From positions 1 to 45,329 of the forward strand of contig JBFRWD010000177.1 of the NCBI GenBank assembly GCA_051439425.1: a DNA stretch of 45,329 bases, written 5' to 3'. Positions 1 through 41,462 of the stretch are shown piece after piece. Position numbers and translations under genes: made by a program. Each line of letters begins with the position of its first letter. Within the stretch, counting starts at the first letter, position 1. The notes beneath the pieces are model-generated. The model did no database searches, was not told where the DNA came from, and worked only from the letters and a program-made list of their open reading frames with translations. The DNA comes from Synechococcus sp. (GTDB taxonomy: Bacteria > Cyanobacteriota > Cyanobacteriia > Thermostichales > PCC-7336).

Positions 1-126
1 CTTTTCTCCTCGTTCGATTGCTTTGAGGACTTTCAGGCGTAGGTCCATGCTGTAGGCGGCTGGCATAAGCGAGATGGCACTCATCAATCCAACCAATATG
101 TCCTAACTGCCTATTCGTTTGCAATA
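1..126 (-). mobile_element. IS630-family element, left end and transposase N-terminus (runs off the window start)
   Basis: The minus strand reads TA-TTGCAAACGAATAGGCAGTTAGGAC, then ATG(66) PAAYSMDLRLKVLKAIERGEK. It has 6 mismatches over 127 nt to the copy at 43929. A TA target is typical of IS630. Confidence 0.9.
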
Positions 127-421
127 GATGACGAGGTGGAGGCGGTGTTTGGGGACAAAGCCTACGATTCTAATGAGCGTGTCCGTCAGCGATTGAAAGC
201 AAAGGGATGTGTTGCGGTGATTCTACCCAAGTCCAATCGCAAATCTCCCCACTCTTATGACAAGCATCTCTACAAAGCTCGTCATTCGATCGAGAACTTT
301 TTTGCCAAGCTTAAGCAGTATCGAGCCATTGCTACTCGCTACGACAAAACCGCTCGTAACTTCCTTGGAGCAATATAGTTAGCAGCTTCCGTTATCTGGC
401 TTAACTGATGGCACGCCCTAG
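127..421 (+). pseudogene. IS5-family transposase C-terminal fragment and right end, interrupted by the IS630 copy
   Basis: Motifs GDKAYDS...YKARHSIENFFAKLKQYRAIATRYDK. A premature TAG at 376-378 is followed in frame by LAASVIWLN-TGA(408), then the terminal sequence GGCACGCCCTAG. Confidence 0.85.
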
Positions 422-682
422 GTGGATTGTCAGTGCGTCTTGATATATTTCAGAGCTCTGCGTAAAAGGATAAGTTGAGATCAGCCTCTACTGGTTGTGT
501 GGTCTAGAAAATGGGCTTGATTGCTAGATGTTTCGCTTTATTGTCAGGCTTTTCGTCCGGTGGGAAGATAATTGAGCTTTCAGACATATCAATGTCGATC
601 AGCTTAATGGTCGCGCTTGGCTTTTGTCTGGCAACTGTGACAAACCCTTTTTAACCGAACCCATTTTCAGACTGATTTATCT

Positions 683-1699
683 ATGACCTCCACTCCAGCC
701 GTCCCGTCACAAACATCTTCTGGGAACACTACCCGAGAGCGTGTCAGCCATTTTTTGCAGACGTTGCAGGACGACATTTGCAACCGATTAGCGGAACTCG
801 ATGGAGAGGCTGAGTTTCGGGAAGATTCGTGGGTTCGCCCGGAAGGGGGCGGAGGTCGCTCTCGGGTGATGGAAGAGGGACGCATTTTCGAGAAAGGCGG
901 GGTGAACTTCTCGGAAGTGGAAGGCACGAAACTCCCTCCATCAATTATCAAGCAGCGCCCCGAAGTGGAAGGGCACGGGTTCTACGCCACAGGCACCTCA
1001 TTGGTCATTCACCCTCGCAACCCGTATGTACCTACCGTTCATATGAACTACCGCTATTTTGAAGCGGGGCCGGTTTGGTGGTTTGGTGGTGGAGCCGATC
1101 TGACCCCCTACTACCCGTTCCGAGAGGATGCCGCTCATTTTCACACCACGCTAAAGGCGGCTTGCGATCGCCATCATGCCGATTACTATCGGGCGTTTAA
1201 GTATTGGTGCGATCGCTATTTCTATCTGCCCCACCGAGGGGAAACTCGTGGTGTTGGTGGGTTGTTCTTTGACTATCAAGATGGCCGCACTGGTCCTTTG
1301 TGTAAATCCAGTGCCCCAAATATTGACGAAACCATCGCTCAATTGTCGATTGGCGAACGCAGTTGGGAGGATATTTTCAGCTTCGTTCAAGATTGCGGCA
1401 ATGCCTTTTTGCCTTCCTACGTTCCGATTGTGGAGCGCCGCCACGAGACCGAATATGGCGATGCTCAGCGACAGTTCCAGTTGTATCGTCGCGGTCGATA
1501 CGTTGAATTCAACTTGGTTTACGACCGGGGAACCATCTTTGGTCTGCAAACGAATGGCCGTACCGAGTCCATCCTGATGTCTCTCCCTCCCCTAGTGCGA
1601 TGGGAGTACGACTATAAACCGGAACCCGGCACCCCAGAGGCCGAGCTGTACGATGTCTTCCTCAAGCCCCAGCCCTGGGCAGAAGGGTCTGTAGCTTAA
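683..1699 (+). CDS. hemF: Oxygen-dependent coproporphyrinogen III oxidase
   Basis: Motifs [37 protein letters not shown] and [16 protein letters not shown]. Confidence 0.97.
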
Positions 1700-1747
1700 T
1701 CAGTTTTCCGGTGTGATAGCCAGTCTTGTGGTAGTTAGGAATTGCCC

Positions 1748-3193
1748 ATGATTACTGCAGCATCTCCCACTGGGGCTTGGTTTCCAGCCATCGATTGCCC
1801 CGCCCAAGAATTCGGCCCGATTTCCTTAAATGCGATCTCGGGACAGATTCCCCCGGACTTAAACGGGCGTTATTTTGCCAACGGGACAGGGCGGCTGCAG
1901 CGCGGTGATGAGCGAGTGGGCCATTGGTTTGATGGAGATGGCGCAATCTTGGGTGTGAACTTCTCAGCAGGAGAAGCAACGGGAGTCTATCGCTACGTCA
2001 AAACGGAAGGTTTTTTAGCTGAAGAAGCTTCGGGCAAATACCAATACGCAGGCTACGGCATGGGCAATAGTGGCCCTATCTGGGAGCGGTTTAGGCCCCT
2101 CAAAAATGCCGCTAATACATCTGTTCTGGCGGTGGACGATCGCCTGTTGGCCCTCTGGGAAGGTGCGGTTCCCCATGCTCTCGACCTAGATACGTTAGAG
2201 ACGAAAGGGCTAGATACGCTGGGGGGGCTCTCTAAAAGCACTCCTTTTTCTGCCCATCCCAAGCGCGATCCGGTAACGGGAGATATCTACAACTTTGGGT
2301 CGAATCTGGGGGCCAAAAACCAGTTGTTTGTATTTCGCTGCGATCGCTTGGGAACCGTCAAACAGCGGGGAACTATCCCGCTCTCTCGCAAAGCCTATGT
2401 CCACGATTTCATTCTGGCGGGGTCCTATTTGGTTTTTGTTCTCTCCCCCGTCACCCTAAACGTGTGGCCGATTCTGTTCAAGCAACGAAACTTTTGCGAC
2501 TGCTTGGAATGGAAGCCTGAATACGGCACCGAGATAATTGCAGTCGATCGCCAATCGCTGGAGGTGGTTAGCCGCACAGAAGCCGAGCCTTGGTACCAGT
2601 GGCATTTTGGCAATGGTTTTGTTGGCGACGATGACACCCTCACCTTTGACACCGTGCGCTATTCTGACTTCCAGACCAATGAATTTTTGCGGCAAGTACC
2701 CACCGGTGTAGCCCCCACCTACTCCCCCAGTACCCTGTGGCAAGTGCAGCTCGATCCCAAACACGGCAAGCTATTGGGCTCTGAACAATTGTGCGATCGC
2801 CATTGTGAATTTCCTACCCTGGCCCCCCACGATGTGGGCCAGCCTCATCGCTACACATACCTCGCCATTCATCCAGACAACGAGACGGCTCCTGGAGAAC
2901 TCTTCCGCGCGATCGGTCGATTTGACCGCCAAGCGGGATCGTTGCAGGCCGCAGATTTTGGGCCAGGGATATATGTCAGCGAACCCATTTATGCTCCTAA
3001 GCCTGGGCCTGAAACTAGAGCCGGGTTTACTACTGGTGGTTGGTTGCTCACTACCATCTACAACAGCTCCCTCCACCGCAGCGAACTGTGGGTCTTTGAT
3101 GCTGAAAGGCTGGATGAGGAGCCGCTGGTTCGATTGGCGTTGCCATCCGTTGTACCCCACGGATTTCACGGCACTTGGCAGCCCAGGCGCTAA
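1748..3193 (+). CDS. Carotenoid oxygenase (RPE65/lignostilbene dioxygenase) family protein
   Basis: HWFDGDG, NAANTSV, SAHPK, HDF, EFP and C-terminal PHGFHG motifs (His ligands for iron). ATG 1748 preferred over TTG 1742. Confidence 0.92.
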   Translation: MITAASPTGAWFPAIDCPAQEFGPISLNAISGQIPPDLNGRYFANGTGRLQRGDERVGHWFDGDGAILGVNFSAGEATGVYRYVKTEGFLAEEASGKYQYAGYGMGNSGPIWERFRPLKNAANTSVLAVDDRLLALWEGAVPHALDLDTLETKGLDTLGGLSKSTPFSAHPKRDPVTGDIYNFGSNLGAKNQLFVFRCDRLGTVKQRGTIPLSRKAYVHDFILAGSYLVFVLSPVTLNVWPILFKQRNFCDCLEWKPEYGTEIIAVDRQSLEVVSRTEAEPWYQWHFGNGFVGDDDTLTFDTVRYSDFQTNEFLRQVPTGVAPTYSPSTLWQVQLDPKHGKLLGSEQLCDRHCEFPTLAPHDVGQPHRYTYLAIHPDNETAPGELFRAIGRFDRQAGSLQAADFGPGIYVSEPIYAPKPGPETRAGFTTGGWLLTTIYNSSLHRSELWVFDAERLDEEPLVRLALPSVVPHGFHGTWQPRR

Positions 3194-3331
3194 GTCTTGT
3201 GGCCTAGCTGAACTGACCGACATTCAACACTACGGCTCGGCGCAGTCAATCTCTCCCAAGCGAGCCTGGAAGGCACCAGAAAGGCTGGGCTAAGCTGGCA
3301 AGAAACTGCCGTTCACGCTGGTTTTCCCTCT

Positions 3332-5299
3332 ATGCGACGTACCGTTGCTTTGTCCTTTGCCCTCAGCCTCAGTTGGATGGGAATGGCGATCGTCCCCATT
3401 ACTCGACAGTCCATCCCCTCCGTACTGGCGCAAACAGCCGTCCCTCAGACACCAGACCCACCAGCAACGAACTCGCAACCAGCAGGTTCACAACCAATCG
3501 GCAGTCGCTTGGGTTGGACTAGCGACTATGCCACGGCGTTAGAAGAGCAGACGGACTTAGTACTGACTGCCGAGCCCTTGGATAGCGTTCTCACTCGCAT
3601 CGAGCTGGCCCAATGGCTGACGGAGTTCTTTAACTATCGAGCAGATCCAGAACGGGCGGTGGCTATTACCGATATGGAACCCGACACCCCCGACTTTTTC
3701 ACGGCTCAGGCGGTGATGCAGGGGGGAATCATGCGAGCCTTCGAGGGGGATCGGTTTCGGCCTGATGGGGATGTGACCAAGCTGGAGGCGATCGCCATTA
3801 TGGTGCGAGCACTCGAACTGCAGCTTCCCAGCGAACGAGTTATCGACCGTTGGCTGGAACTATATGACGACAGCGATGCGGTTCCCGAGGTTGGCTATCC
3901 GTTTATCGCGATGGCTGGGGAGGCTGGTCTGATCGTCAATGTTCCCGATCCCGAGCGACTCAATCCCAACCTAATTCTCAGTCGTGGCGAAGGGGCGGTG
4001 CTGCTACACCAAGCATTGCTAGCCCAGCGGCAGGTGAGCGATATCGATCCACCCATTGCCCAAGTTGTGCCACAGCCTCTGCCGAAACCCGAAATTGCCT
4101 CCATCAGCGTCTCTCCCGAGACCGGCAGCGTTGGACCTGGTGAGAGCTTGATCGTAGAGGTGGAAGGAACGCCCGATGCCCAAGGGGCAATCTTGCTTGC
4201 CGGTTCAATTCAGCAGTCGTTACAAGAAGTAGAACCCGGTCTATATCGCGCAGAATATATCGTGACGCCTCAGGATGCGATCGCCAATCCCTCTGTTGCC
4301 GTCCGCCTCGATCTGAATGGAGAAGTCACCCGCAGCCAGCGTCAACTGCCCGCGCTGGCCTTGGGGAATGCACTAATTCCTACGCCTAACAATTCCACAG
4401 AACCGAATAATCCGGCCTTTCCCAACCCCTCAACCAATCCCCCCAGTAACGCGGCTCCCCCCCCGCCGATCGCCACCAATCCCAGCTTGCCAGCTCGCCC
4501 ACCCGGCACAACACCGGCACCACCTGCTGCTGCCAACGCCCCCACATTTACCAGTATCTTTGTCAGCCCTCAGCGGAATCTGCGAGTGGGCGATATCTTC
4601 ACGGTTGGCATCCAGGGGGATCCGGGAGCTGTTGCTATGTTCGATTTAGGAGAGTTTGCTACCCAGCAGCCCATGCAGGAAATTCGTCCGGGGGTGTACG
4701 AGGGGACTTACGCAATCGCCACCAATGACTTTGCGCAAAGCCCCGAATTAACCGTTACGTTTTCCAAAAACAATCGCGGCACCTATCACGCCGAAGTCTT
4801 CCCTTTTGCCATTAACACCGTCGCATCCGCTCCACCGGCATCTATTCCGCCGGCGGTATCCTCTCCTCCAATTCCAGATCCGGTTCCCCCACAAGCGACC
4901 AACTCTGCACCAGTCAATCCTCCGGCTTCGCCCTCTCCACCTCCAGCTAATTCTGCGTCAGAATCACCCGCTATTCTCGACCCTTCTTCGGGAGGACAGC
5001 CTCTGATTTTCGCATCTTCGTCCAATGCCAACGGACGCGAGTTGCGCCCCAACGATTTTTTGGAGGTCAGAATGCGAGGGGAACAGGGAGCCCGTGCAGC
5101 GTTTAGAATTCCGAATGTTATTCCGGATACCGAGATGACCGAAGTTGCCCCCGGAATCTATGAAGGGCGCATTCGCATCAGCGGTAATACCCCTGCCGTA
5201 CGCAATGGTCTGCTGCAGGTGGTTCTGGAAAAACGTGGCATCAGTACAACACGAACCTTGCCGGAATCCGTCACGATTTCTCCTGTTCCCAATAGTTAG
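3332..5299 (+). CDS. Secreted S-layer homology (SLH) domain protein with Pro-rich linkers and three repeated beta-rich modules
   Basis: Signal peptide; SLH-like FRPDGDVTKLEA and LNPNLILSRGEGA; three E-x-x-P-G-x-Y modules. Confidence 0.8.
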   Translation: MRRTVALSFALSLSWMGMAIVPITRQSIPSVLAQTAVPQTPDPPATNSQPAGSQPIGSRLGWTSDYATALEEQTDLVLTAEPLDSVLTRIELAQWLTEFFNYRADPERAVAITDMEPDTPDFFTAQAVMQGGIMRAFEGDRFRPDGDVTKLEAIAIMVRALELQLPSERVIDRWLELYDDSDAVPEVGYPFIAMAGEAGLIVNVPDPERLNPNLILSRGEGAVLLHQALLAQRQVSDIDPPIAQVVPQPLPKPEIASISVSPETGSVGPGESLIVEVEGTPDAQGAILLAGSIQQSLQEVEPGLYRAEYIVTPQDAIANPSVAVRLDLNGEVTRSQRQLPALALGNALIPTPNNSTEPNNPAFPNPSTNPPSNAAPPPPIATNPSLPARPPGTTPAPPAAANAPTFTSIFVSPQRNLRVGDIFTVGIQGDPGAVAMFDLGEFATQQPMQEIRPGVYEGTYAIATNDFAQSPELTVTFSKNNRGTYHAEVFPFAINTVASAPPASIPPAVSSPPIPDPVPPQATNSAPVNPPASPSPPPANSASESPAILDPSSGGQPLIFASSSNANGRELRPNDFLEVRMRGEQGARAAFRIPNVIPDTEMTEVAPGIYEGRIRISGNTPAVRNGLLQVVLEKRGISTTRTLPESVTISPVPNS

Positions 5300-5300
5300 G

Positions 5301-5341
5301 TAGTGACTAGGGTTGGTGACTGGGATTGTGGTGACTGAGGT
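5301..5341 (+). repeat. Three degenerate 13-bp tandem units (T[AG]GTGACT...)
   Basis: tagtgactagggt, tggtgactgggat, (tg) tggtgactgaggt, immediately after the SLH gene stop. Confidence 0.5.
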
Positions 5342-5463
5342 TGATGGACCGAGGCGAGTGGAAACACTCATCGCTAGTGCAGGTTGAAGCGATCTCAAGC
5401 TTCTACTTGCCTTAATTTCAGACCAAGTCCTAGACTCAAAAGGCGGATTTATGGAACGATTTC

Positions 5464-6402
5464 GTGCCTCACCCTGACGGCCCCTCACAGGCTCTCACTG
5501 TCGAAAGTCCACTGGATTTAGTCGGCAACACCCCTCTAATTCGCTTGCGTCGTGTCACAATCGATTTGCCGCCTTCCGTCAAGATTTACGGCAAAGCAGA
5601 GTGGTACAACCCTGGTGGTTCCGTTAAGGATCGGCCTGCTCTCAACATGATCGAGGCCGGAGAGCAATCCGGAGCCCTCACCCCAGATAAAGTTATTTTG
5701 GATGCAACGTCGGGCAATACTGGGATCGCATACGCCTGGATTGGGGCTGCAAAGGGCTACAAAGTCAAACTCGCCCTACCGTCAAATGCCAGTGAAGAGC
5801 GCAAGAAAATTTTGAGCGCATATGGTGTCGACCTCGTGTTGACCGATCCAGGCGCGGGGTCAGACGGTGCCATCCTGAAGGCAAAAGAGATTTACCAGGC
5901 CAACCCCGAGCTGTATTTCTACCCCGACCAGTACAGCAATCCTGCCAATTGGCAAGCTCACTACAACTCCACCGCCGTGGAAATCCTGCAGCAAACTGAT
6001 GGCAAGGTGACTCACTTTGTTACAGGTCTGGGAACCAGCGGCACCTGTATGGGAGTCGGACGACGACTGCGACAGTTTAACCCTGCCGTTCAAATTGTGG
6101 CCATGCAGCCGGACTCTCCTTTCCACGGATTGGAAGGGCTCAAGCATATGGAAACGGCAATTGTTCCACCCATCTACGATCCGCTCGTGCCCGATCGCCA
6201 AATTGAAATAGGCACCGAAGCTGCTCAAGAGATGGTCAAGCGGTTGGCGCGTGAAGAGGGTCTGCTGGTGGGGATTTCTGCTGGAGCTAACGTGCTGGCA
6301 GCGTTAGACATTGCTCGGGAACTGGAATCTGGCATTATCGTCACCGTACTGTGCGATAGCGCTGACAAGTACCTCTCCGATCGCTTCTGGGCCGAGCCAT
6401 AA
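5464..6402 (+). CDS. PLP-dependent cysteine synthase (CysK/CysM family)
   Basis: VGNTPL, NPGGSVKDR (PLP lysine), ATSGNTG and GLGTSGT motifs. Confidence 0.93.
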   Translation: MPHPDGPSQALTVESPLDLVGNTPLIRLRRVTIDLPPSVKIYGKAEWYNPGGSVKDRPALNMIEAGEQSGALTPDKVILDATSGNTGIAYAWIGAAKGYKVKLALPSNASEERKKILSAYGVDLVLTDPGAGSDGAILKAKEIYQANPELYFYPDQYSNPANWQAHYNSTAVEILQQTDGKVTHFVTGLGTSGTCMGVGRRLRQFNPAVQIVAMQPDSPFHGLEGLKHMETAIVPPIYDPLVPDRQIEIGTEAAQEMVKRLAREEGLLVGISAGANVLAALDIARELESGIIVTVLCDSADKYLSDRFWAEP

Positions 6403-31192: not shown

Positions 31193-32251
31193 TTGCCCGT
31201 GCAACGCTCCTTTAAACGCATCATTACTGGAGTCGTCTTCTTTGCCGTTACCAACGTAGTGGCCATTTCGGGGTATGTTGCCGCCGGATGGAAGCCCCTC
31301 GACGCCACCTACATGACCGTCATCACCATCTTTGGTGTCGGCTATGGAGAAGTCCAACCCCTCAGCCCCAAAATGCGGCTATTCACCATTGGCGTTATCC
31401 TGGCTGGATTTTGGTCGGCTGCCTATATTGTCTCGGGCTCGGTGCAATTGCTGGCGGAAGGGGAAATTAATCGAGCGCTACAACTTCGACGCATGGATAA
31501 AGAAATCGACAATTTAGAGAATCACACCATCATCTGTGGCTTCGGTCATGTGGGAGAGATTCTGGCAGCTAAGTTAACGGACGATCGCCATTCGTTTGTG
31601 GCGATCGATATCGACTCCGATCGCGTCGCCCATGCTCGGGAATTGGGTTACTGGGTCCGCTGTGGCAGTGCTTCTGACGAAGAGATTTTGAAATCAGCAG
31701 GGGTAGAGAAAGCCAAAGTCTTGGCCACCGTCCTGCCCGATGACGCCAATAACGTATTTATTACTCTGACAGCCCGTGGCCTCAATCCCGACCTCACTAT
31801 CGTGGCCCGAGGCACCGCCCCCAGCACCGAACACAAGTTGAAGCTGGCAGGTGCCGATCGCGTCGTCATGCCAGCAGCAATCGGAGCCCTACGCATGGCG
31901 CACACCATTACTCATCCTGCCTCTGAGGATTTGCTTTCCAACGCCGAAGGCATGAGTTTTTTAAACGAAGAGCTCGCTCAGCTAGATGCCCGGATTGACG
32001 AGTTACCGATTCCAGGAAATTCGCCATTAGTTGGCAGGACGCTAGAGGACATCGAGCGGCAGTCCAAGGGGCGCTTTATTGCCGTGGCCGTACGACGGGC
32101 TGATGGTCAGCTCATTTCCCGTCCAGAATCAGCCCTGACGCTGGAGCGAGATGACACCATCATTGTCATCGGTCGCAGCGATGCTGTGCCTCAACTAACG
32201 GCCTACTACAACATTCAACGCAAAGCCCAATATCGAGGATCGCGCTTGTAG
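31193..32251 (+). CDS. Potassium channel family protein (2TM + TrkA-N/TrkA-C)
   Basis: Filter-like TIFGVGYGE, Rossmann IICGFGHVG, NVFITLTAR and RCK-C domain. Confidence 0.9.
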   Translation: MPVQRSFKRIITGVVFFAVTNVVAISGYVAAGWKPLDATYMTVITIFGVGYGEVQPLSPKMRLFTIGVILAGFWSAAYIVSGSVQLLAEGEINRALQLRRMDKEIDNLENHTIICGFGHVGEILAAKLTDDRHSFVAIDIDSDRVAHARELGYWVRCGSASDEEILKSAGVEKAKVLATVLPDDANNVFITLTARGLNPDLTIVARGTAPSTEHKLKLAGADRVVMPAAIGALRMAHTITHPASEDLLSNAEGMSFLNEELAQLDARIDELPIPGNSPLVGRTLEDIERQSKGRFIAVAVRRADGQLISRPESALTLERDDTIIVIGRSDAVPQLTAYYNIQRKAQYRGSRL

Positions 32252-32300
32252 GCAAGGCAAGAAATAGAGAGGCGAAAAGAGGGAGCTTCAGGACTTATGG

Positions 32301-32711
32301 TTAGAAAGCCGGGGCTTGCCGGACAAGGAGATTTACAGTGACGCACAGGACTTCCCTTGGCTTGCTCCGAGTTCGCGGGCATTGCACCAGTATAGTATTG
32401 GCCATTTCAGTCAGGACAGAGGTTCCGATCGCAGTCAGGTCTAGACATAGCTGAAATGTTTGCAGTGGTATGGCCACTGCTATAACCATCGCTTCGGTTG
32501 CCAGATTCTCGGTGAGCGCCAGCTTCTCTTCAGTTGTCGTTAAAGCAGGCTCAACGTCAGCGATTCGATCCACCTCCAGTGATTGAAGCTGATGGCCTGG
32601 CAAAGAGGCAGACCAGCCCAATGCAGCAGCAACAGCAATTGCTGCAATGCTCAAATCGATCGCGGCATGCTTGATGTTTGCCGTACCAACCCCTCTGAAT
32701 TCCTTATTCAC
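32301..32711 (-). CDS. Possible hypothetical protein
   Basis: 136-aa GTG-started ORF with an N-terminal hydrophobic stretch; no recognised motif. Confidence 0.3.
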   Translation of the reverse strand: MNKEFRGVGTANIKHAAIDLSIAAIAVAAALGWSASLPGHQLQSLEVDRIADVEPALTTTEEKLALTENLATEAMVIAVAIPLQTFQLCLDLTAIGTSVLTEMANTILVQCPRTRSKPREVLCVTVNLLVRQAPAF

Positions 32712-33413
32712 CCGATGGCAGGCCCGAAACTAATGTTGCCTAGCAGATGCAAATAGCACTTACCTCTGCAGCAGCAGCCTAGCCCCCCAATGAATGTAAT
32801 GATGACCAACCCTGTATGCCGTCAGTTACGAACCTTGGACCACTTCCATTCCAGTAACGTGCCAATCCAGTGACATCGAATACAGAACTGAAGCTACGAC
32901 TAGCCATACAGCTAGATAAAGATAGCTCATGCACCACCCCTCCCTCAGCGGATTGGCGCGCTTGCAAACAAGGAGATTTCCGGCACTTCAGACACCGCTT
33001 ATCGGCCACCGAGCTGGATAGAAACAGCTATTTACCAAAGTAAAACCAGCCTATTAAATGGGTCATCCCATCAGCCAAGAATACTCACTTACGATTCTCA
33101 CACTCTCTTAATTTCTGAAATACTTTGGTTAACTAGCCTGGTACTATCCGACACATACGGTGCGTATCATCTCAGCTTAGATATTGTTGGTTTCCCCACC
33201 TAGGCAGCATGTCTCAGCCGACTGTTCCTGGGTATGCGAACACCATATCGCTAAGCCATCGATGCATGAGGAATTGACGATTGTTTTGCTTGATAACAGT
33301 AGAACAGGTACGTAGAACTACTGACTCGGCAATTCTGTCTGTCTATGGCTGTTCGCCGAAAATGGGTAAAATCCTGTAAAGTTATGTATCTGTCAAATTC
33401 ATCCACGCGGGTG

Positions 33414-34187
33414 ATGAATCTTTTGAGGAGCGAACCATTGCAAACGCTTTCTGCTACCGCTCTCAAGCCCACGACTTGGCGTCGCGAGTCTATCGCTATC
33501 TCGACTCGCATGCTCGAAATGACGTACCGGTCTAGCGGTACCCCTGTTCCTGTTTTGAGAAACATTAATTTTTCTGTCGCCTCTGGCGAAGTGCAATTTT
33601 TGATGGGGCCATCTGGATCTGGAAAGACCACTCTTCTGTCCATCTTGGCTGGCATTCTCACCCCCACTGGGGGCGATGTCGAGTTGCTGGGAGAAACCAT
33701 CACTCGCATGTCCCGCAAACGGCTGAGCCAGTTTCGTCGCTCCAACATCGGCTTTATTTTTCAAGGGTTCAATCTATTTCCCACTCTGACGATTTCGGAA
33801 AATGTCGAAGTGGCCTTGAACCTAGCCAATGTCAAAGGGACTCGCGCTAAGCAACAGGCGCTCTTTCAACTAGAGCGCGTAGGACTGGCTGACAAAGCCA
33901 ATGCTCGCCCGGCCGATTTATCGGGTGGCCAGCAGCAGCGAGTGGCGATTGCTCGTGCACTGGTGAGCAATCCCAAGCTAATCATGGCGGACGAACCCAC
34001 AGCATCCCTAGACTCACGCAACGGTCAGGTGGCGATGGAGCTGTTACAGCGTCTGGCAAAAGAGTCCGACTGTACTGTTTTGGTGGTCACCCACGATCCT
34101 CGGATTACACCATTTGCCGATCGCATCATCCACATGGAAGATGGATGCATCATCGACACGGAAGAACGCTACCCAGCCGCCGCCTGA
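33414..34187 (+). CDS. ABC transporter ATP-binding protein (DevA/LolD type)
   Basis: [39 protein letters not shown] and VTHD motifs. Start uncertain (33345-33510). Confidence 0.92.
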
Positions 34188-35146
34188 CGCTGCCGAGCAA
34201 TTTCGGATAGCGTAGTGTCCACGGAGCGAGGTTGCCACCCTAATTCCCGCCGAGCTTTACTACCATCCACCCGCACGCACCGATCGTAGATGTAGTGAAC
34301 TCGCTCCCGACTGATGGGGGGATTCCAATTTAGGAGTCTCCCCATTGGTGTAAGTAGGTGTCCCAGTAGTCGCACAATCCACCGGGGGGCCTCTGCCGGA
34401 ACAGGGATACCGGTGTGTTTACCCAACAGTTCAAACATGTCCCGCAGAGATCGCTCTCCAGCCGAAATAATGTAGCGCTCTCCGCTGCGCCCCTTGTGGA
34501 CCATCTCAATCAGTGCATCCGCTAAATCATCCACATGCACAATTCCAGTGATGCGATCACCCCCCGGCCACCGCTTGAGCCAACCGGACAAGAAGAGATC
34601 GAGCACCGGCCCAAAGTGGGGATCGTCCGCTCCAAAGATACCGGAGGGCAATGCACTCGCCACCCACAGCCCTCGCGCAGCCGCAGCATCAATTAACGCT
34701 TGTGCCTCGTATTTCGTGCGATCGTAGGCGGAAGAAAACTCTTTCTGCTGACGGACGTAGGTTTCGTCGACCGCTACCCCTGCCGTGTCTCCCAAGACTC
34801 CAATCGTGCTGCAATACACCAGTTTGGGCGGAGTTGATTGAGCGATCGCGGCTTCGATGACTGTGCGAGTGCCTGTCACATTCACCCGCTCCATTTCTAT
34901 GCCATTAACCACCCCCAGATCCACCTTTGCAGCCAGATGAAAGACCGCATCCACCCCATTCATGGCTCGATCGAGAACGTCCGCATCACAAATATCTCCG
35001 TAGGCTAGTGTCAGAGGCAGATTTTGCAGGCGCTCGCAATTGCTGGATGTGCGCACCAATCCCACCACCTCGTGACCGCGCTCTAAAAGCAGTCGTACGA
35101 GATGGGAACCGCTAAATCCGTTCGCTCCTGTAACAAGGGCTTTCAT
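34169..35146 (-). CDS. NAD-dependent epimerase/dehydratase (extended SDR)
   Basis: TGANGFSG Rossmann motif, FHLAA and catalytic YDRTK (YxxxK). Confidence 0.92.
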   Translation of the reverse strand: MKALVTGANGFSGSHLVRLLLERGHEVVGLVRTSSNCERLQNLPLTLAYGDICDADVLDRAMNGVDAVFHLAAKVDLGVVNGIEMERVNVTGTRTVIEAAIAQSTPPKLVYCSTIGVLGDTAGVAVDETYVRQQKEFSSAYDRTKYEAQALIDAAAARGLWVASALPSGIFGADDPHFGPVLDLFLSGWLKRWPGGDRITGIVHVDDLADALIEMVHKGRSGERYIISAGERSLRDMFELLGKHTGIPVPAEAPRWIVRLLGHLLTPMGRLLNWNPPISRERVHYIYDRCVRVDGSKARRELGWQPRSVDTTLSEIARQRQAAAG

Positions 35147-35320
35147 TGACTGACACTCTTATTGGTTTGAGAAACGCGTTCGAAGTGATTTGGAACAGGC
35201 AGTATAAGGATCGGCAATCCGCTATGGAGAGTTTCCTAAGCACTTTTCCCTGCCAATAAAGGATTCTAGCTGTCTCAACACTCCAGACCTTAGAGCGGAT
35301 TGCCATAATTGCAGAACAAC

Positions 35321-36454
35321 TCACAAAAGTTTTTCGTACATGCGGTAGGTTTTGTAAATCTGTGCGCCGGTTGCTTCGATCACTTTGCGAGAGGGCCAAT
35401 TATCCTCGTATACCCACGACAATTCTGCCGATCGATAGGGTCTGCGCTTCTGGGTTGCGCCCGTCATGCCCAAGTGAATCAGAGCAAGGGGAACCATTTT
35501 GCGACGGTACTCGGGCAGCGACGCGATCGCCAATACACGGCCGCGATCGATCTGTCGCCGAAACCAGAGAAACTTGAGAATTCCGATCGCGTTGAGCCTG
35601 CCTCCGACGTGCTTTAAAGGGATGTTGTAGTCCGGCAGCGCCAAAAACAGCCCCACCATCTCCCCATCATCTTCCGCAATCCAGAAAATATCTGGGTCTA
35701 CTAAACTCCGTAAGGACTGAGCCTCCTCCAAAAACTCTGCTTCGCTCCGCTCGGACGAACTCCAATTATTGACAAATGCCCGCGTGAATAGTCGATAGAA
35801 AGCTCGGCAATCTGCGAGAAAACCATCCCCCTTTGTATTCAATGGACGGAAGGTAATTCCTGCTTTCGTTGCAACCCGGTAACCCCGCTCGTAAATGCTG
35901 TCTAGAGGGCGATCGAGAGGTAGGTTATAGGCGTACGCATCCTTAGCCTTTTTCCATCCAAGCTGCTCGAAAAAAACAGGGTAGTAAGCCGGGTTGTAGG
36001 GCGTCATGACATGGGGTTGCAAGTCGAACCCATCGGCCAAGAAGAGGCAGCTGTTGTGGGTGGAAAAATCGATCGGGCCGCGGGCTAGCTCCATACCTTG
36101 GCCTTTCAGCCATGCACAGGCGTCATCTAGTAACTGACCGGCAATATCCAGACTATTAATACACTCGAAAAATCCCACTACCCCGACCGACCGTCCCTCC
36201 CGTTCCACTAAGCGCTTGTTGACTGCGGCCACCACCCGTCCAACTGCTGCCCCAGTGGCATCAACGGCGATCGCCTGGCGCATGTGGCCGTAATGAAAAA
36301 ATGGATTGCTGGGTTGAAACTGCTTGGCAACATCGCTGCGCAGTGGCGGCACCCAGTGGGGGTCGCCTCGATACACTCTGGCAGGAACATCTAGAAATGC
36401 AGCACGATCGCTGTCTGTCTCCACTGTCCGAATGTCGCAGGCTGCCGTTTGCAT
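35321..36454 (-). CDS. GNAT-fold protein of the YghO / bacterial ceramide synthase (bCerS)-like family
   Basis: DPHWVPPL, NPFF, GRV.A, GFFEC, RGP, MTPYNPAYY, LPDYN, AELSWVYEDN and YKTYRMYEK motifs; GGAGG Shine-Dalgarno. Confidence 0.75.
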   Translation of the reverse strand: MQTAACDIRTVETDSDRAAFLDVPARVYRGDPHWVPPLRSDVAKQFQPSNPFFHYGHMRQAIAVDATGAAVGRVVAAVNKRLVEREGRSVGVVGFFECINSLDIAGQLLDDACAWLKGQGMELARGPIDFSTHNSCLFLADGFDLQPHVMTPYNPAYYPVFFEQLGWKKAKDAYAYNLPLDRPLDSIYERGYRVATKAGITFRPLNTKGDGFLADCRAFYRLFTRAFVNNWSSSERSEAEFLEEAQSLRSLVDPDIFWIAEDDGEMVGLFLALPDYNIPLKHVGGRLNAIGILKFLWFRRQIDRGRVLAIASLPEYRRKMVPLALIHLGMTGATQKRRPYRSAELSWVYEDNWPSRKVIEATGAQIYKTYRMYEKLL

Positions 36455-36535
36455 GTCGCCTCCGGTATCTGTGCGGTGATTATCCCTGAATTCAGTTGGG
36501 GGTGAGTTGTGGGGATAGCGAGGGAAGCGATGGCC

Positions 36536-37524
36536 TCAAGCACTAGCCGGTACGGGCGATTTGGACGAATTGGCTTCTGCCATCATGTACTCCCGCGTGT
36601 TGACCATCGCGTCCACCAGGCGATCCATTTGTTGGCGATCGTGCAAAGCGTTAGCGGTAATGCGCAAGCGAGGTTTAGCGATAAACCAAATCGGTGAAAC
36701 CCATACTTGGTAGACATCAAGCATCTGTTGGGCAAACACTTTGGGATTGAGATCGGTTGGTAGGAGGACTGGAATGACGTTGGTTTCCCCAATAGCCTTG
36801 AATCCCGCGTCCTGAAGGCGCGATCGCAGATATCGGGTATTGGCTTGCAAGGTTGCCACCCGTTCGGGATGCTGGCGCACCTGGCGAATACTTTCTAACG
36901 CAGCAGCAGTTGTGGGCGGGGGTAGGGAAATGGTGCCGATAGAGGTGGGAGATACATCCAAAAGTCGATTAGGGCCTGGGAGTGGCTGCTAATCGCTGCA
37001 CCAGCCGATGCCGCAAACTTGGAAAATGTCGTCATGATGATGGGCACCAAACCGCGATCGATCGCCTGTTGGGGGTGCAGATCGAAATGTTCGTAGATTC
37101 CGCCACCGCTGGCACCAATGGCACCGCTGGCATGAGCCTCGTCCATGACCACGACGCTACCGGGATAGTCGGCCATTACATCCAGCATCTGCGGCAGCGG
37201 CACAATGTCTCCATCCATGGAAAAGACAGAATCGGAGATGACCACAATGCGATCGTCCGGTTTGAAATAGCGCTGCAATTTCCGGGCCAAATCGTTCATA
37301 TCGCAATGTCGATACGCCTTCACCCGCACGTTAGGACTGTAGCCAAACATCTTTCCCGAGCGGTTCCCGGCATTGACCACTGCCGACACAATGCAACCGT
37401 GATTGAGCACGTCTGTCAGGATCAGGGTTTCTCGTTTGTGCTCGAATCCCGGTATGGGCATTGCCAAGTGGCAAAAACCATCCATCAATGCCTGCAATGC
37501 CATCCACGCATTCAAGAACAGTTG
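36536..37524 (-). pseudogene. Alpha-oxoamine synthase (Spt/BioF/Kbl-type PLP enzyme), 5'-truncated and frameshifted
   Basis: LNHGCI, YRHCD, VFSMDGD, DEAH, TTFSK (PLP Lys) and RLRIT motifs, split over two frames at ~36960 (1-nt deletion). No N-terminal domain upstream of QLFLNAW. Confidence 0.85.
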
Positions 37525-37697
37525 CTTGATCCAGAGAATCCTCCTCATTACCAGCAGTAGGATATGCACCTATCGCTGGTAGATGGGTCAAGTCTACGGT
37601 CTAAAATCCATGTAGACTCTATATCTATAGCTTATGGCTAATTTTTCTGGATTGACGGCCAGATTTTGTCCGTGGGGTGTTTCAAGGTGAATGCAGC

Positions 37698-38510
37698 ATG
37701 AGAAAGGCAAAACTTGAAATTAATTTTGGCAGATTTCTTGTGCCTTGCAGAGTTTATGGGGAAGCAAATCAAATTATTATATGTATAAGCGGGGCTAAGC
37801 AGACGATGGCCTCGTGGCGTTCATTCATCAGCCATTTTGTTGCAGATTACTCGATTGTTGTATTCGATATGCCTGGGCAGGGGCGTTCTCTCATTATAGA
37901 AGGTTCTCAAGGAGTATCTTTTGAGGAACAAGTTCAAGTTCTGCATGCTGTCATTTCAAAAGTCAGTCAAGATCAAGCCGTTATCATTGCGGCAGCTTCC
38001 TGGGGAACCCTAATTGCTGCTGCTTATGCCGCGCGCTATCCTGACTCTGTCGATAAAATGATCCTCGGTAGCTTCGGTGCGAAGCCAACAGAAGCCATCT
38101 TAGATGTAATTCATCGCGGTCAACAGTTATTCAGGGAAAATCAAACCTCTAAAATTGCACTATTGATGATTGAGAGTTTTGGCCAGCATCTCTCGAATTC
38201 TCATAAGCAACAGATTGTCAATCAGTTTCAAAAAATGAGCTGGGAGCAGTACAAATCATTCTACGAGCACTGCGAGTTCGTCAGCCAAGTAAAAGATATT
38301 GATGAATATATCGACTTGCGAAAGATCAAGGCTTCAACGCTGATTGTAAGTGGTGAGTACGATCCCATCTTAGATCGAGACCACATTATAGAGGCATCCA
38401 GCCACATTCCAAACTGTGAATACAAGATGATCCGAAATGCCGGACATTTTCTACACTGGGAACGAGAAGAAATACTCTATACCTACAGCGAATTTTTATC
38501 TCGAGTCTAG
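37698..38510 (+). CDS. Alpha/beta hydrolase resembling RhlA/PhaG acyl-ACP transferases
   Basis: SGAKQTMASW, VFDMPGQGRS, AASWG (Ser), GEYD (Asp) and GHFLHWE (His); collinear with the RhlA sequence as I recall it. Confidence 0.75.
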   Translation: MRKAKLEINFGRFLVPCRVYGEANQIIICISGAKQTMASWRSFISHFVADYSIVVFDMPGQGRSLIIEGSQGVSFEEQVQVLHAVISKVSQDQAVIIAAASWGTLIAAAYAARYPDSVDKMILGSFGAKPTEAILDVIHRGQQLFRENQTSKIALLMIESFGQHLSNSHKQQIVNQFQKMSWEQYKSFYEHCEFVSQVKDIDEYIDLRKIKASTLIVSGEYDPILDRDHIIEASSHIPNCEYKMIRNAGHFLHWEREEILYTYSEFLSRV

Positions 38511-38535
38511 TCGTTTATCAATTTTTCAAAGTGCT

Positions 38536-39375
38536 ATGCCCGAACTGTCTCTGAGTCCAGTTCCTCGCCTTGAATCTATCACCCGCGAGGAGTTTGAAAA
38601 AAAGTACCTCACCCCCAAACGTCCTGTGATCGTTCAAGATATAGCAGCTCAATGGGTGGCTATACAGAAATGGACACCCGAGTTCTTAAAGTCTAAATAT
38701 GGTGACAAGTTCGTTAAGGTCTACGATTCTAGCTTTGTGAAAGCTGGGAAAAGCTATATGTCTAATGTCGAGAAAATTCCCTTCGATAGTTTTCTTGACA
38801 GTGTTCTGAACGATGATCGAGATTTGCGGATGTTTCTCTACAACATATGTAGAGAAATCCCAGAACTTGTTGATGACATTCAACTGCCGTCATTAGTTGA
38901 TGGGTTGTCTAAGAATTTTATTTTTATGTTTTTTGGGTGTAGGGGATCTGCCACCCAAATGCATTTCGATATCGACATGGCTCACGTCTTTCATACCGTT
39001 TTCTACGGCAGAAAAGTCGTTACGCTATATCCCTACGAACAGGGATGCAATATTTACCGATATCCGTTCACCTGTCGTAGTTATATTGATGTTCACAAAC
39101 CAGATTTTGATCGATATCCTAAGCTAAAAGCCGCTCAGGGATATCGAGTCGAGATCGAACCTGGAGAAACACTCTTTATGCCGAGTGGATACTGGCACCA
39201 CATGGTTTATGAAGAGCCAGGCTACTCTCTTTCGTTAAGGTGGGCACCTCAGTCCTTAGGATTGAAGCTGCGTGGCTACTACAACATATTTGTGATGTCT
39301 GTGATTGATCGACTGATGAATAAGATAAGCCCAGAAATTTGGTTCAACTGGAAAACCGAACGAGCCCGTGTCTAG
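38536..39375 (+). CDS. JmjC / cupin-like Fe(II)-2OG dioxygenase
   Basis: HFD (HxD) ... LFMPSGYWHH facial triad; RPVIV..., KWT.EFL N-terminal pattern. Confidence 0.88.
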   Translation: MPELSLSPVPRLESITREEFEKKYLTPKRPVIVQDIAAQWVAIQKWTPEFLKSKYGDKFVKVYDSSFVKAGKSYMSNVEKIPFDSFLDSVLNDDRDLRMFLYNICREIPELVDDIQLPSLVDGLSKNFIFMFFGCRGSATQMHFDIDMAHVFHTVFYGRKVVTLYPYEQGCNIYRYPFTCRSYIDVHKPDFDRYPKLKAAQGYRVEIEPGETLFMPSGYWHHMVYEEPGYSLSLRWAPQSLGLKLRGYYNIFVMSVIDRLMNKISPEIWFNWKTERARV

Positions 39376-39390
39376 CTTTACCAAAAATAT

Positions 39391-39416
39391 TGCCTGCTCC
39401 AGTCTAGTGGCAGGCA
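39391..39416 (-). terminator. Possible terminator hairpin between the convergent JmjC and pedR genes
   Basis: TGCCTGC-N12-GCAGGCA, followed on the minus strand by ATATTTTT. Confidence 0.35.
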
Positions 39417-39522
39417 TTACAGATACCTTTATGACTTGTGGATGTTACAGATAACCCTCAAGACAAGTGAAAGAGTAGCCTCTTATCGCTGCACAAGAAT
39501 TTGGGATTGGCCAAACTGCTGA

Positions 39523-39798
39523 CTAGGCAGATTGAGACTGGATCTCGCCCGAGTCAAGCGTACAGCAGTTGACATCGTCGAGACAAACCTTACCCCACTG
39601 CAACGCCCAGCGAACGAGAGCCACGCGATTGGCTGTACGGGTTTTCTCTAAAATGTTGCTGATGTGGTTATCTACCGTCCGCTTACTGATTGCCAACTGT
39701 TTGGCAATGTCTTGATTCGTTAAGCCTGTTGCAATGAGTTCCACTACCTGTAACTCGCGATCCGACTAGTTGTCAGTAGAACGGTAGGAAGTTTCCAT
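39523..39798 (-). pseudogene. pedR: PedR-like small LuxR-type regulator with an in-frame TAG at codon 11
   Basis: METSYRSTDN*SDRELQVVELIATGLTN...ISKRTVDNHISNIL...WALQWGKVCLDDVNCC. Confidence 0.8.
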
Positions 39799-40523
39799 GC
39801 TATTGCCAGAACGTAAATATACTCAAAGCCCCTTTGGGACCATTGTAGGGGATCGATTTAGATGTGGCACCTCTACGTAAATATTCCTATCGCGCCTTGC
39901 AGATCGCCCCCAGAGCAGCAAACTCTCAACGCCATTAGGAATAAAGCTTTGGTAGAAAATACCCAACGAGAATCAACCTAGCCTTTCGCACCTTTAGCTG
40001 GAGTCTCCTGAACTACCGTCATTAGGCATAAAACAGCGAAAACAAGCCCAGCGGACTAACACAGGTAACCCCATAACCGCATAATTCAGAGACTCCGTTA
40101 GTGCCATCCCACACGAGTCAACGCGCTATTATCTGGCCGCCTCTCACCCAAAACCCTTTTGTATTGAGAGTGACCCTAGCCGTTGGGAGGAAGTCAACAG
40201 CACAACCAGTCCAGCACGTTAGTGATTGCGACAGGCGGCTGAGTATAAGTTCCCTTAACTCAATAAATGTGTTGGAGGCTACAATCTCCTGACCTCTGCT
40301 TGCATACCCTGATCGAAAACTAACTTCGAATCCCCCAAGGCCTGTGCCAACTTGAGTCGGTAAATCTCACGGTCGATCTGTCTCGTCATGGGGGTGAGAT
40401 AAGTAGACGTCGGTTAGATAGACATCGGCAACGCTGTCGCAATTGCACAGTCTGTGAGATGGACCTTTTTGACTGGCTGCATCTCCATCAGGTTCATGCC
40501 AACTCTAGTGGCTGGGTTTATTT

Positions 40524-41462
40524 ATGAGGCTCGAACAGCTTCAAGCATTTCTCGCAGTGTCAGAATCGGGGAGTTTTCAGCAGGCTGCCCGTCATTGCAA
40601 TATCACTCAGTCTACGGTCAGCAGACAAATTCAGTCTCTGGAAACCCAGTTAGGGCTGTCATTGTTCCACCGCTCGACCCCAGCTAAGCTCACAGTTGCT
40701 GGAGAGCACCTACTGGCCCGCGCTCGACGTATCTGTCAGGAATGGGAAAGTGCCACCCTAGAACTATCAGAACTAGCCGCCGGCAAACAAACCGAGCTGT
40801 GCGTTGCGGCTATTCAGTCTGCCTGCTCAACGTATTTGCCTCCCATCCTTCAGCAGTTTTGTTCCGACTACCCAGACGTACAATTACGAGTCACGTCATT
40901 GGGCAGCGATCGCGCCTTAAAAGTATTGCGGGATGGGTTAGTCGATGTGGCGCTCGTCATGCACAATCGCTGGCTAACCGAGAAAGCCGAGACAAAGATC
41001 TTGCAACTGTACGATGAACCTATTGATGTATTGCTGGCAGCCGATCACCCATTAGCTGAATATGACAGCATTCCCTGGCACGCGCTGGCTAAGTATCCTC
41101 AAGTGGTATTCAAAGATGGATACGGTATGCAACGGCTGGTGCAAGAACAGTTTCAACGGCAGGGATTACAGCTAAAAGCGGCCTTAGAGCTGAATACGTT
41201 GGATGCCTTTCGGGGAGTCGTCAAGCAGGGCAATATGGTGGCATTGCTGCCGCAAGCCGCCACTCTGAACGCGATCGCCGATCCCCATTTGGTGACCCGA
41301 GCAACAGAGACTCCACGCTTGACCCGACAGGTGGCGTTAGTCACCACCCGGGATCGGCTCGAGTTCCCTCCCATCCGCCATTTTTGTCAGTTGGTGCAAC
41401 AGCATCAGACCCTGTTGGAGACCAATCGACCCGAAACAGTCGTCGCCGAGGCTGGAGGGTAG
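40524..41462 (+). CDS. ntcB: LysR-family regulator NtcB (nitrate/nitrite assimilation)
   Basis: MRLEQLQAFLA...GSFQQAA..C..TQSTVSRQIQ and LRVTSLGSDRALKVL; adjacent to a cnaT-like gene, as in Anabaena. Confidence 0.85.
   Translation: MRLEQLQAFLAVSESGSFQQAARHCNITQSTVSRQIQSLETQLGLSLFHRSTPAKLTVAGEHLLARARRICQEWESATLELSELAAGKQTELCVAAIQSACSTYLPPILQQFCSDYPDVQLRVTSLGSDRALKVLRDGLVDVALVMHNRWLTEKAETKILQLYDEPIDVLLAADHPLAEYDSIPWHALAKYPQVVFKDGYGMQRLVQEQFQRQGLQLKAALELNTLDAFRGVVKQGNMVALLPQAATLNAIADPHLVTRATETPRLTRQVALVTTRDRLEFPPIRHFCQLVQQHQTLLETNRPETVVAEAGG

Follow-up and report, generated by a model that had tools for sequence, protein, structure and literature searches.

The stretch of DNA analyzed here, referred to below as the window, comprises 45,329 nucleotides (positions 1 to 45,329 of contig JBFRWD010000177.1, assembly GCA_051439425.1) of a cyanobacterium listed as Synechococcus sp. 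On its minus strand, between positions 34169 and 37569, three co-oriented reading frames are found, which encode an extended short-chain dehydrogenase/reductase (SDR), a GNAT protein and the remnant of a pyridoxal phosphate (PLP)-dependent alpha-oxoamine synthase (AOS). An earlier reading of the letters alone (the sequence-only reading) had described this trio as a ceramide-type lipid operon with genes for a serine palmitoyltransferase (Spt)-like enzyme carrying a TFSK motif, a YghO-like GNAT protein and a reductase. The frames are located where that reading had placed them, the TFSK motif is present, and the SDR and GNAT genes are intact; the AOS gene, however, is truncated and frameshifted. 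The features of the locus are as follows.

34169–35146, minus strand: extended SDR of the NAD(P)-dependent epimerase/3beta-HSD type, 325 amino acids, intact (open reading frame, Pfam); proposed ketoreductase
35321–36454, minus strand: predicted tandem-GNAT protein of the YghO/bCerS family, 377 amino acids, intact (open reading frame, homology, fold); proposed N-acyltransferase
36536–36961, minus strand: 3' piece of the AOS pseudogene, C-terminal third, in a frame of 141 amino acids (Pfam PF00155, positions 251–360 of 361)
36962–36966, minus strand: site of the AOS frameshift, where the intact orthologue has one more base (global alignment with locus L002, see below)
36967–37524, minus strand: 5'-truncated middle piece of the AOS gene with the His (NHGC), DEAH and TFSK Lys motifs (frame 36895–37569, 224 amino acids)
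37525–39522, plus strand: low-GC block of about 2 kb replacing the 5' end of the AOS gene and its upstream region (homology to L002 is interrupted from 37525 to 39523)

The AOS gene of the source genome is a pseudogene with two lesions, a 5' truncation and a frameshift. The closest relative found, locus L002 in the metagenome-assembled genome (MAG) of Cyanobacteria bacterium J06642_12, carries an intact AOS gene (450 amino acids), followed by GNAT, SDR and a convergent ABC ATPase gene. At the DNA level, window positions 37525–36563 correspond to L002 4713–5676 with 86% identity. The AOS gene of L002 starts at 4342 and the homology of the window sets in at nucleotide 372 of this gene, so that the window has lost roughly the first 124 codons along with the upstream region; the Pfam and NCBIfam matches of the AOS begin at profile positions ~100–124 (of 361–395). 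The breakpoint coincides with position 37524, at which the sequence-only reading had let the trio end. The sole internal gap in the global AOS alignment is a 1-bp deletion in a short C run at window position ~36964 (L002 5274). The middle piece of the remnant shares 94% amino acid identity with residues 125–310 of the L002 protein (ratio of nonsynonymous to synonymous substitution rates, dN/dS, 0.055) and includes the lysine motif (MTTFSKFAAS), and the 3' piece is 91% identical (dN/dS 0.070). The intact neighbors are 89% (GNAT, dN/dS 0.064) and 86% (SDR, dN/dS 0.12) identical to their L002 orthologues. Since the dN/dS values of the remnant equal those of the intact neighboring genes (0.05–0.12), the loss is recent.

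In place of the 2-kb block, L002 contains 746 bp up to a syntenic LuxR-type gene. The GC content of the block is 0.42 (38001–39000) compared with about 0.52 around it, and no repeats flanking it were found. As DNA syntenic with L002 flanks the block on both sides, an in-place replacement is indicated rather than a chimeric join. A second assembly, the Logan assembly of sequencing run X1, is probably derived from the source sample and thus does not represent independent data. One of its records spans 36400–37152 including the frameshift, and another bridges the junction from 37123 to 37753, and each matches the window with 0 differences. In runs X2 and X3, related contigs contain an extra G at 36960 or 36963, that is, they do not have the deletion, and related contigs in X2, X3 and X4 continue with unlike sequence from 37512–37525. 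It is extremely improbable that the lesions are artefacts of assembly or sequencing and that the gene is intact in the organism, even though the genome is a draft, the frameshift is due to one base within a short run of C, and the only run holding the full stretch is probably the source sample. Against such an origin stand the agreement of the second assembly at frameshift and junction, the synteny on both sides of the block, and the search of the 96% complete genome (182 contigs), which yielded no second AOS copy and in which the 224-amino-acid piece matched only itself, BioF and Kbl. The genome's own BioF (380 amino acids) is encoded on contig C162 and its own Kbl (407 amino acids) on contig C75. 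On the latter, the genes for a Tdh-like extended SDR, Kbl and a threonine dehydratase-like protein lie in a row (L014, positions 17–3344), which represents an ordinary AOS locus of threonine degradation.

Because the AOS is dead at this locus, no working pathway is encoded here. The proposal that the locus encodes a pathway for a sphingolipid or a related amino lipid is therefore not supported for the source genome, and the terms "operon" and working trio do not hold. The non-functional first step also limits the value of the window itself.

Three further genes lie next to the trio or within the low-GC block.

33345–34187, plus strand: DevA-family ABC ATPase, convergent with the SDR gene (NCBIfam TIGR02982, 245.9 bits; cut-off 295.8)
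37677–38510, plus strand: alpha/beta hydrolase in the low-GC block (Pfam PF00561, 86.4 bits)
38437–39375, plus strand: Cupin_8/JmjC-like protein in the low-GC block (Pfam PF13621, 113.1 bits)

The ABC ATPase gene has the identical placement in L002 (dN/dS 0.05) and in L001, a further locus with an intact AOS gene, and is a frequent, not a constant, neighbor of the three genes. The hydrolase and Cupin_8/JmjC-like genes overlap by 74 nucleotides; contigs 95–97% alike to the block occur in run X2. Beyond the block, a frame of 73 amino acids with a LuxR/GerE-type helix-turn-helix (39523–39744, minus strand; PF00196, 57.7 bits) is syntenic with L002 3599–3967; this frame possibly corresponds to the C-terminal domain of a regulator that is longer or has been truncated. 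Promoter and terminator scans of the locus remained at chance level (4 promoter-like sites versus 6.7 expected), no Rfam family was detected in 32000–41000, and no holder of RNA data was listed for the stretch of the locus.

Family placement of the three proteins

None of the curated models identifies the first enzyme, taken for Spt-like in the sequence-only reading, as an Spt. The intact orthologues of L002 and L001 reached 172.5 and 175.1 bits with the Spt model of the CFB type (cut-off 640), 147.5 and 153.8 bits with the beta model (500), and 104.5 and 109.0 bits with the alpha model (670). The scores were 190.9 and 178.8 bits for Kbl (NF005394, cut-off 460), 83.3 and 92.7 bits for CqsA (NF005526, cut-off 428), and 154–167 bits for the ALAS model (cut-off 339). 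For comparison, Spt of E. coli scored 599.2 bits with the beta model, 219–428 bits with other models for Spt, BioF, Kbl, CqsA and ALAS, and 128 and 127 bits with two further models. A search of 1.84 billion representative sequences retrieved seven full-length members of the AOS family (P0121, P0122, P0124, P0125, P0127, P0129 and P0130; 234–590 bits) and fragments, below which the scores formed a plateau at ≤165 bits. In an NCBIfam scan that covered 81 of the 150 proteins listed in this search (340–480 amino acids), the seven members had no match at E ≤ 1e-95; the plateau proteins were mostly BioF and Kbl above the cut-off, together with a few Spt-like proteins below it.

The phylogenetic tree comprised 44 rows, of which 16 belonged to the AOS family, 10 to BioF, 11 to Kbl and seven to Spt-like proteins; the sampling included no CqsA or ALAS rows. 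The 16 family rows made up a single long-branched clade (SH-aLRT 100), and BioF, Kbl and the Spt-like proteins each formed one group. Clustering with BioF or Kbl, which the sequence-only reading had named as evidence against its proposal, was not observed, and the source genome has a separate BioF and Kbl. The family falls on the Spt side of the split that sets BioF and Kbl apart (support 89, not starred), and trees constrained to unite it with BioF or with Kbl were not rejected (p-values of the approximately unbiased test, p-AU, 0.241 and 0.239, respectively). According to the alignment, the catalytic His (NHGC), the DEAH motif, the Lys (TFSK) and the C-terminal Arg are retained. The best solved relative was the Spt of Sphingobacterium (123.9 bits), followed by Kbl (113.8 bits). 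Judged by the curated models, the AOS is assigned to a separate family, distinct from Spt, BioF, Kbl and CqsA.

The second protein had been called YghO-like, which is borne out. It aligns with E. coli K-12 YghO over its full length (28% identity over 377 amino acids, E 2e-47); the spt cluster is absent from E. coli K-12. In the available part of PMC9386255, yghO (ECD_02850) is identified as the counterpart ('aca') of CC_1154, the N-acyltransferase of Caulobacter, and is placed in a five-gene dihydroceramide cluster together with spt, acpR, epi and aasR. For Caulobacter, Spt, bCerS and CerR are described, and acylation followed by reduction is the proposed order (PMC11087976, available in part). 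Homologues from Longimicrobium and Thermodesulfobacteriota are 35% identical to the GNAT protein and 35–36% to YghO (Longimicrobium 36%). The Longimicrobium gene is part of a row SDR–AOS–GNAT, the AOS of which scores 508.6 bits with the Spt-CFB model. In the genome of the Thermodesulfobacteriota homologue (L075, G304:C303:51829-53010), an Spt-like match of 549 bits (Spt-CFB) was noticed in a frame of 829 amino acids; this frame has about twice the normal length and may represent a fusion protein. Bacteroidota genomes with GNAT homologues were considered as labeled Spt references and dropped, because their best AOS scored 347–349 bits, below the Spt-CFB cut-off.

No Pfam or NCBIfam model matched the GNAT protein at E ≤ 1e-3, and its family matches no curated model of its own. 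PF00583 remained below its threshold (18.6 bits, cut-off 20.7, E 0.0024) and reached 43.3 bits in the Longimicrobium relative. An AlphaFold model based on an alignment of 18 rows (pLDDT 85.7, pTM 0.81) matched tandem-GNAT structures with Foldseek E-values from 3e-14 to 1e-11. Among the matches were 2wpw, a protein of the clavulanic acid pathway, 7q3a and MshD, with E 1e-13 to 1e-11 and TMq 0.55–0.60 for these three, and also MAB_4324, N-myristoyltransferase and FemX-type enzymes. The sequence search of the PDB yielded nothing below E 0.95, and the search of the ESM Atlas yielded generic GNAT names only. From homology and the predicted fold, the middle protein is classified as a tandem GNAT of the YghO/bCerS family.

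The third protein is an extended SDR, as had been proposed, with an N-terminal TGANGFSG motif (residues 6–13), a YDRTK motif (YxxxK), and Pfam matches to PF01370 (Epimerase, 115.6 bits) and PF01073 (3Beta_HSD, 95.8 bits). Its likeness to a ceramide reductase is weak: the identity to the CerR-type 'epi' of E. coli is 24% (E 1e-16), a level usual among extended SDRs in general. HpnA is the best NCBIfam model for the SDR and for 'epi', below the cut-off in each case (192.7 bits for the SDR, cut-off 367.65); SdmB and OleD (104.7 bits) follow, likewise below their cut-offs. Of these closest curated families, OleD acts on lipid ketones, whereas HpnA and SdmB act on lipids.

The gene module in other cyanobacteria

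The sequence-only reading had suggested a search for intact copies in other cyanobacteria, and linked AOS, GNAT and SDR genes were indeed found in many of them, in the order AOS–GNAT–SDR. Among 8000 candidates scored, 1253 relatives of the GNAT protein were found at E ≤ 1e-3. The top 120 are 64–75% identical, and those that carry names are all cyanobacterial. Synechococcus sp. PCC 7336, Allocoleopsis franciscana and Mastigocladopsis repens are among the named carriers of the GNAT gene. In 40 of the 301 sampled genomes of the phylum (source genome included), a GNAT match at E ≤ 1e-20 was present: 23 genomes of the same class have orthologues with 55–68% identity, and 16 genomes of other classes contain only homologues with 26–34% identity. 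Within 1.5 kb on either side of the 23 orthologues, the GNAT gene is adjoined by an AOS gene at 17 loci, by an SDR gene at 12, by both at nine and by neither at three. Six genomes have no AOS adjoining the GNAT gene; a 69–76% identical open-frame copy was detected elsewhere in all five of these that were searched. GNAT and AOS thus co-occur at the genome level.

Gene clusters were counted across 25 wider loci (the window, L001–L004 and L050–L069). GNAT is present at 25 of them, AOS at 17, SDR at 16, an MFS transporter in divergent orientation at 13, a Rieske/VanA_C oxygenase at 12 and the ABC ATPase at 8. In most cases the genes are ordered Rieske oxygenase–AOS–GNAT–SDR, accompanied by the divergent MFS exporter, and the oxygenase gene lies directly upstream of AOS. 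Neither the oxygenase nor the MFS gene is present at the window locus or in L002, and the best Rieske protein of the source genome is only 36% identical.

The conserved MFS gene, an efflux-type transporter, bears on the possibility that the intact module forms a small, possibly secreted amino ketone or amino alcohol with a short acyl chain and an N-acetyl group instead of a membrane lipid, the window then containing a dead copy of such a module. We regard this as unlikely. It would be in line with the absence of a conserved acyl carrier protein (ACP) or acyl-AMP ligase from the module, with the unrejected grouping of the AOS with Kbl or BioF (p-AU 0.24 each), with the dominance of BioF and Kbl among the nearest sequences beyond the AOS family, and with the use of acetyl-CoA by most of the solved tandem GNATs that match the GNAT model. 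The GNAT protein, on the other hand, is placed in the YghO/bCerS family, whose studied context is long-chain ceramide synthesis, and N-myristoyltransferase and FemX-type enzymes are among its fold matches, too. The best curated relatives of the SDR act on lipids, and an AOS identity of 69–76% across cyanobacterial families suits a core component of the cell better than a variable natural product.

Decay of the AOS is not restricted to the window. In L003 (MAG of Oscillatoria sp. SIO1A7), the AOS is also 5'-truncated, with residues 1–181 found in no frame, and the GNAT and SDR frames are intact. Together with the lesion in the window, this indicates independent AOS decay at least twice, in two lineages. 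Between AOS and GNAT, L003 (3132–5699) harbors a gene for a B12-binding radical SAM protein on the minus strand, which is split into the frames 4049–4924 and 4875–5699. Pairs of intact GNAT and SDR genes next to a broken AOS gene raise the question of whether both proteins are active in the absence of an AOS, for instance in the acylation and reduction of another amine-bearing lipid or metabolite, which would leave the locus functional. The low dN/dS values of the intact GNAT and SDR genes in the window (0.064 and 0.12) and the configuration of L003 fit this explanation, as do L004, where GNAT occurs with neither AOS nor SDR nearby, and the distant GNAT homologues L044–L049, which have no AOS or SDR within 1.5 kb (6/6 loci). 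Nonetheless, it appears improbable: the dN/dS of the AOS remnant is equally low, so that the intact neighbors may only reflect the recency of the loss; an AOS was found elsewhere in 5/5 genomes lacking adjacency; and the DNA upstream of the trio has been replaced, with promoter-like sites at chance level.

Proposed pathway and comparison with known systems

The locus is probably a copy, inactivated not long ago, of a module that is conserved in cyanobacteria and would make a ceramide-like lipid of the N-acyl amino alcohol type. In relatives with an intact module, the PLP-dependent AOS would join an amino acid and an acyl thioester to a 2-amino-3-keto compound, the YghO/bCerS-type GNAT would acylate the new amine, and the extended SDR would reduce the 3-keto group, giving an N-acyl amino alcohol. 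The Rieske oxygenase may then hydroxylate the product, and the MFS protein may move it. The anatomy of the genes, both lesions, the homologies and the conservation of the module are direct results, from which we infer this chemistry, which step follows which, what the enzymes act on and that the product is a lipid; "sphingolipid" would be a name by analogy. In the source genome, the pathway is most likely switched off by the loss of the first step, with the GNAT and SDR genes still intact, which may not have decayed yet or may have another use. A wider proposal, which we put forward tentatively, is that many cyanobacteria make an N-acylated, possibly hydroxylated 2-amino-3-hydroxy lipid, whose backbone would be formed by a new AOS family, maybe with an amino acid other than serine, and that the window captures the state just after the loss of this trait by insertion of foreign DNA of 2 kb and a frameshift.

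Several points weigh against the reading as a lipid module. The highest NCBIfam scores of the intact AOS were obtained for BioF (TIGR00858, 215.2 and 234.1 bits, cut-off 426.45). The family has NDVLGL in place of NNYLGL, in which the Tyr is lost, lacks the Arg in the G-S/T-R loop and contains three insertions. As the AOS is far from every characterized AOS, its amino acid and acyl substrates are not readable from the sequence. The link of the GNAT protein to bCerS was made through E. coli YghO as the stand-in for the Caulobacter protein. Dedicated genes for an ACP and an acyl-ACP synthetase are present in Caulobacter and E. coli, whereas none are conserved beside the module, and no ACP or acyl-AMP ligase cluster is common to at least 4 of the 25 wider loci. 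The intact GNAT and SDR genes of the window could mean a use without the AOS, and for every member of the module the product is deduced from the genes. Finally, the available part of PMC8895605 reports that Nostoc punctiforme has no sphingolipids and that its single AOS is a BioF that forms no 3-ketodihydrosphingosine. Since only one AOS was found there, this strain probably does not possess the module.

To our knowledge, it is not accepted that cyanobacterial membranes contain sphingolipids. Full-text searching for a connection between cyanobacteria and bacterial ceramide synthase returned one paper in two versions, which mentions cyanobacteria only in its reference list. In the literature searched, no description of the module was found and no paper linked cyanobacteria to bCerS, in agreement with the earlier statement that this is not an established cyanobacterial capability; the Nostoc punctiforme study, as far as available, was the only genetic and lipidomic test found there, with a negative outcome (PMC8895605). 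The same source, in the part available, notes second AOS genes in other cyanobacteria and cites scattered reports of cyanobacterial ceramides (PMC8895605). The module offers concrete candidate genes for these reports and points to the strains in which to look. A separate AOS family could extend what is known of the chemistry by which amino-ketone backbones of lipids are formed. The copy in the window indicates that the module is dispensable; with its loss via AOS inactivation in at least two lineages (window and L003), natural knock-outs are available for comparison.

Among the known systems, BioF and Kbl share with the AOS the fold-type I AOS superfamily and the catalytic His/Asp/His/Lys/Arg positions, and BioF is the best-scoring curated model. 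In contrast, the AOS reaches only about half of the respective cut-offs, and the BioF and Kbl rows group away from the AOS family. For the accessory genes, a likeness to sterol C-4 demethylation by SdmA and SdmB was seen, in that SdmA and SdmB rank first or second among the models matched by the Rieske oxygenase and SDR of the relatives. The scores (232.8 and 123–155 bits), however, are far below the cut-offs of 600, and sterol demethylation involves neither an AOS nor a GNAT. A role of the Rieske/SDR pair in sterol or hopanoid modification was therefore rejected on account of the low scores and the missing oxygenase in the window lineage.

In the capnine or sulfonolipid route, the AOS is a cysteate-C-fatty acyltransferase, which condenses a fatty acyl thioester with an amino acid that is not serine; the keto group is reduced and the amine acylated afterwards. 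There is thus precedent for Spt-like reactions on amino acids besides serine, and the solved cysteate-C-fatty acyltransferase 28eh_A was matched by the AOS at 94 bits. This match is weaker than those to the Spt of Sphingobacterium (123.9 bits) or to Kbl (113.8 bits), and nothing indicates cysteate as a substrate.

The proteobacterial dihydroceramide pathway of Caulobacter crescentus and E. coli B (PMC9386255 and PMC11087976, each available in part; E. coli locus L019) uses the same three enzyme types as the module, namely a PLP-dependent AOS, a tandem-GNAT N-acyltransferase of about 380 amino acids (bCerS, CC_1154/CCNA_01212 in Caulobacter) and an extended SDR. It differs in the first enzyme, as the AOS of the module forms its own clade and scores 105–175 bits with the three Spt models (cut-offs 500–670), and in the reductase, as the SDR is only 24% identical to 'epi'. 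Instead of genes for an ACP and an acyl-ACP synthetase, both of which are present in the E. coli locus (AcpR and AasR), the cyanobacterial relatives have a gene for a Rieske oxygenase and one for an MFS transporter. The ceramide cluster of E. coli is flanked by a second lptF/lptG pair (L019, 1313–3459). According to its title, a preprint of 2026 reportedly links paralogues of lipopolysaccharide transport proteins to sphingolipid transport in Caulobacter. The gene order AOS–GNAT–SDR of the module fits the acylate-then-reduce order that has been proposed for Caulobacter (PMC11087976).

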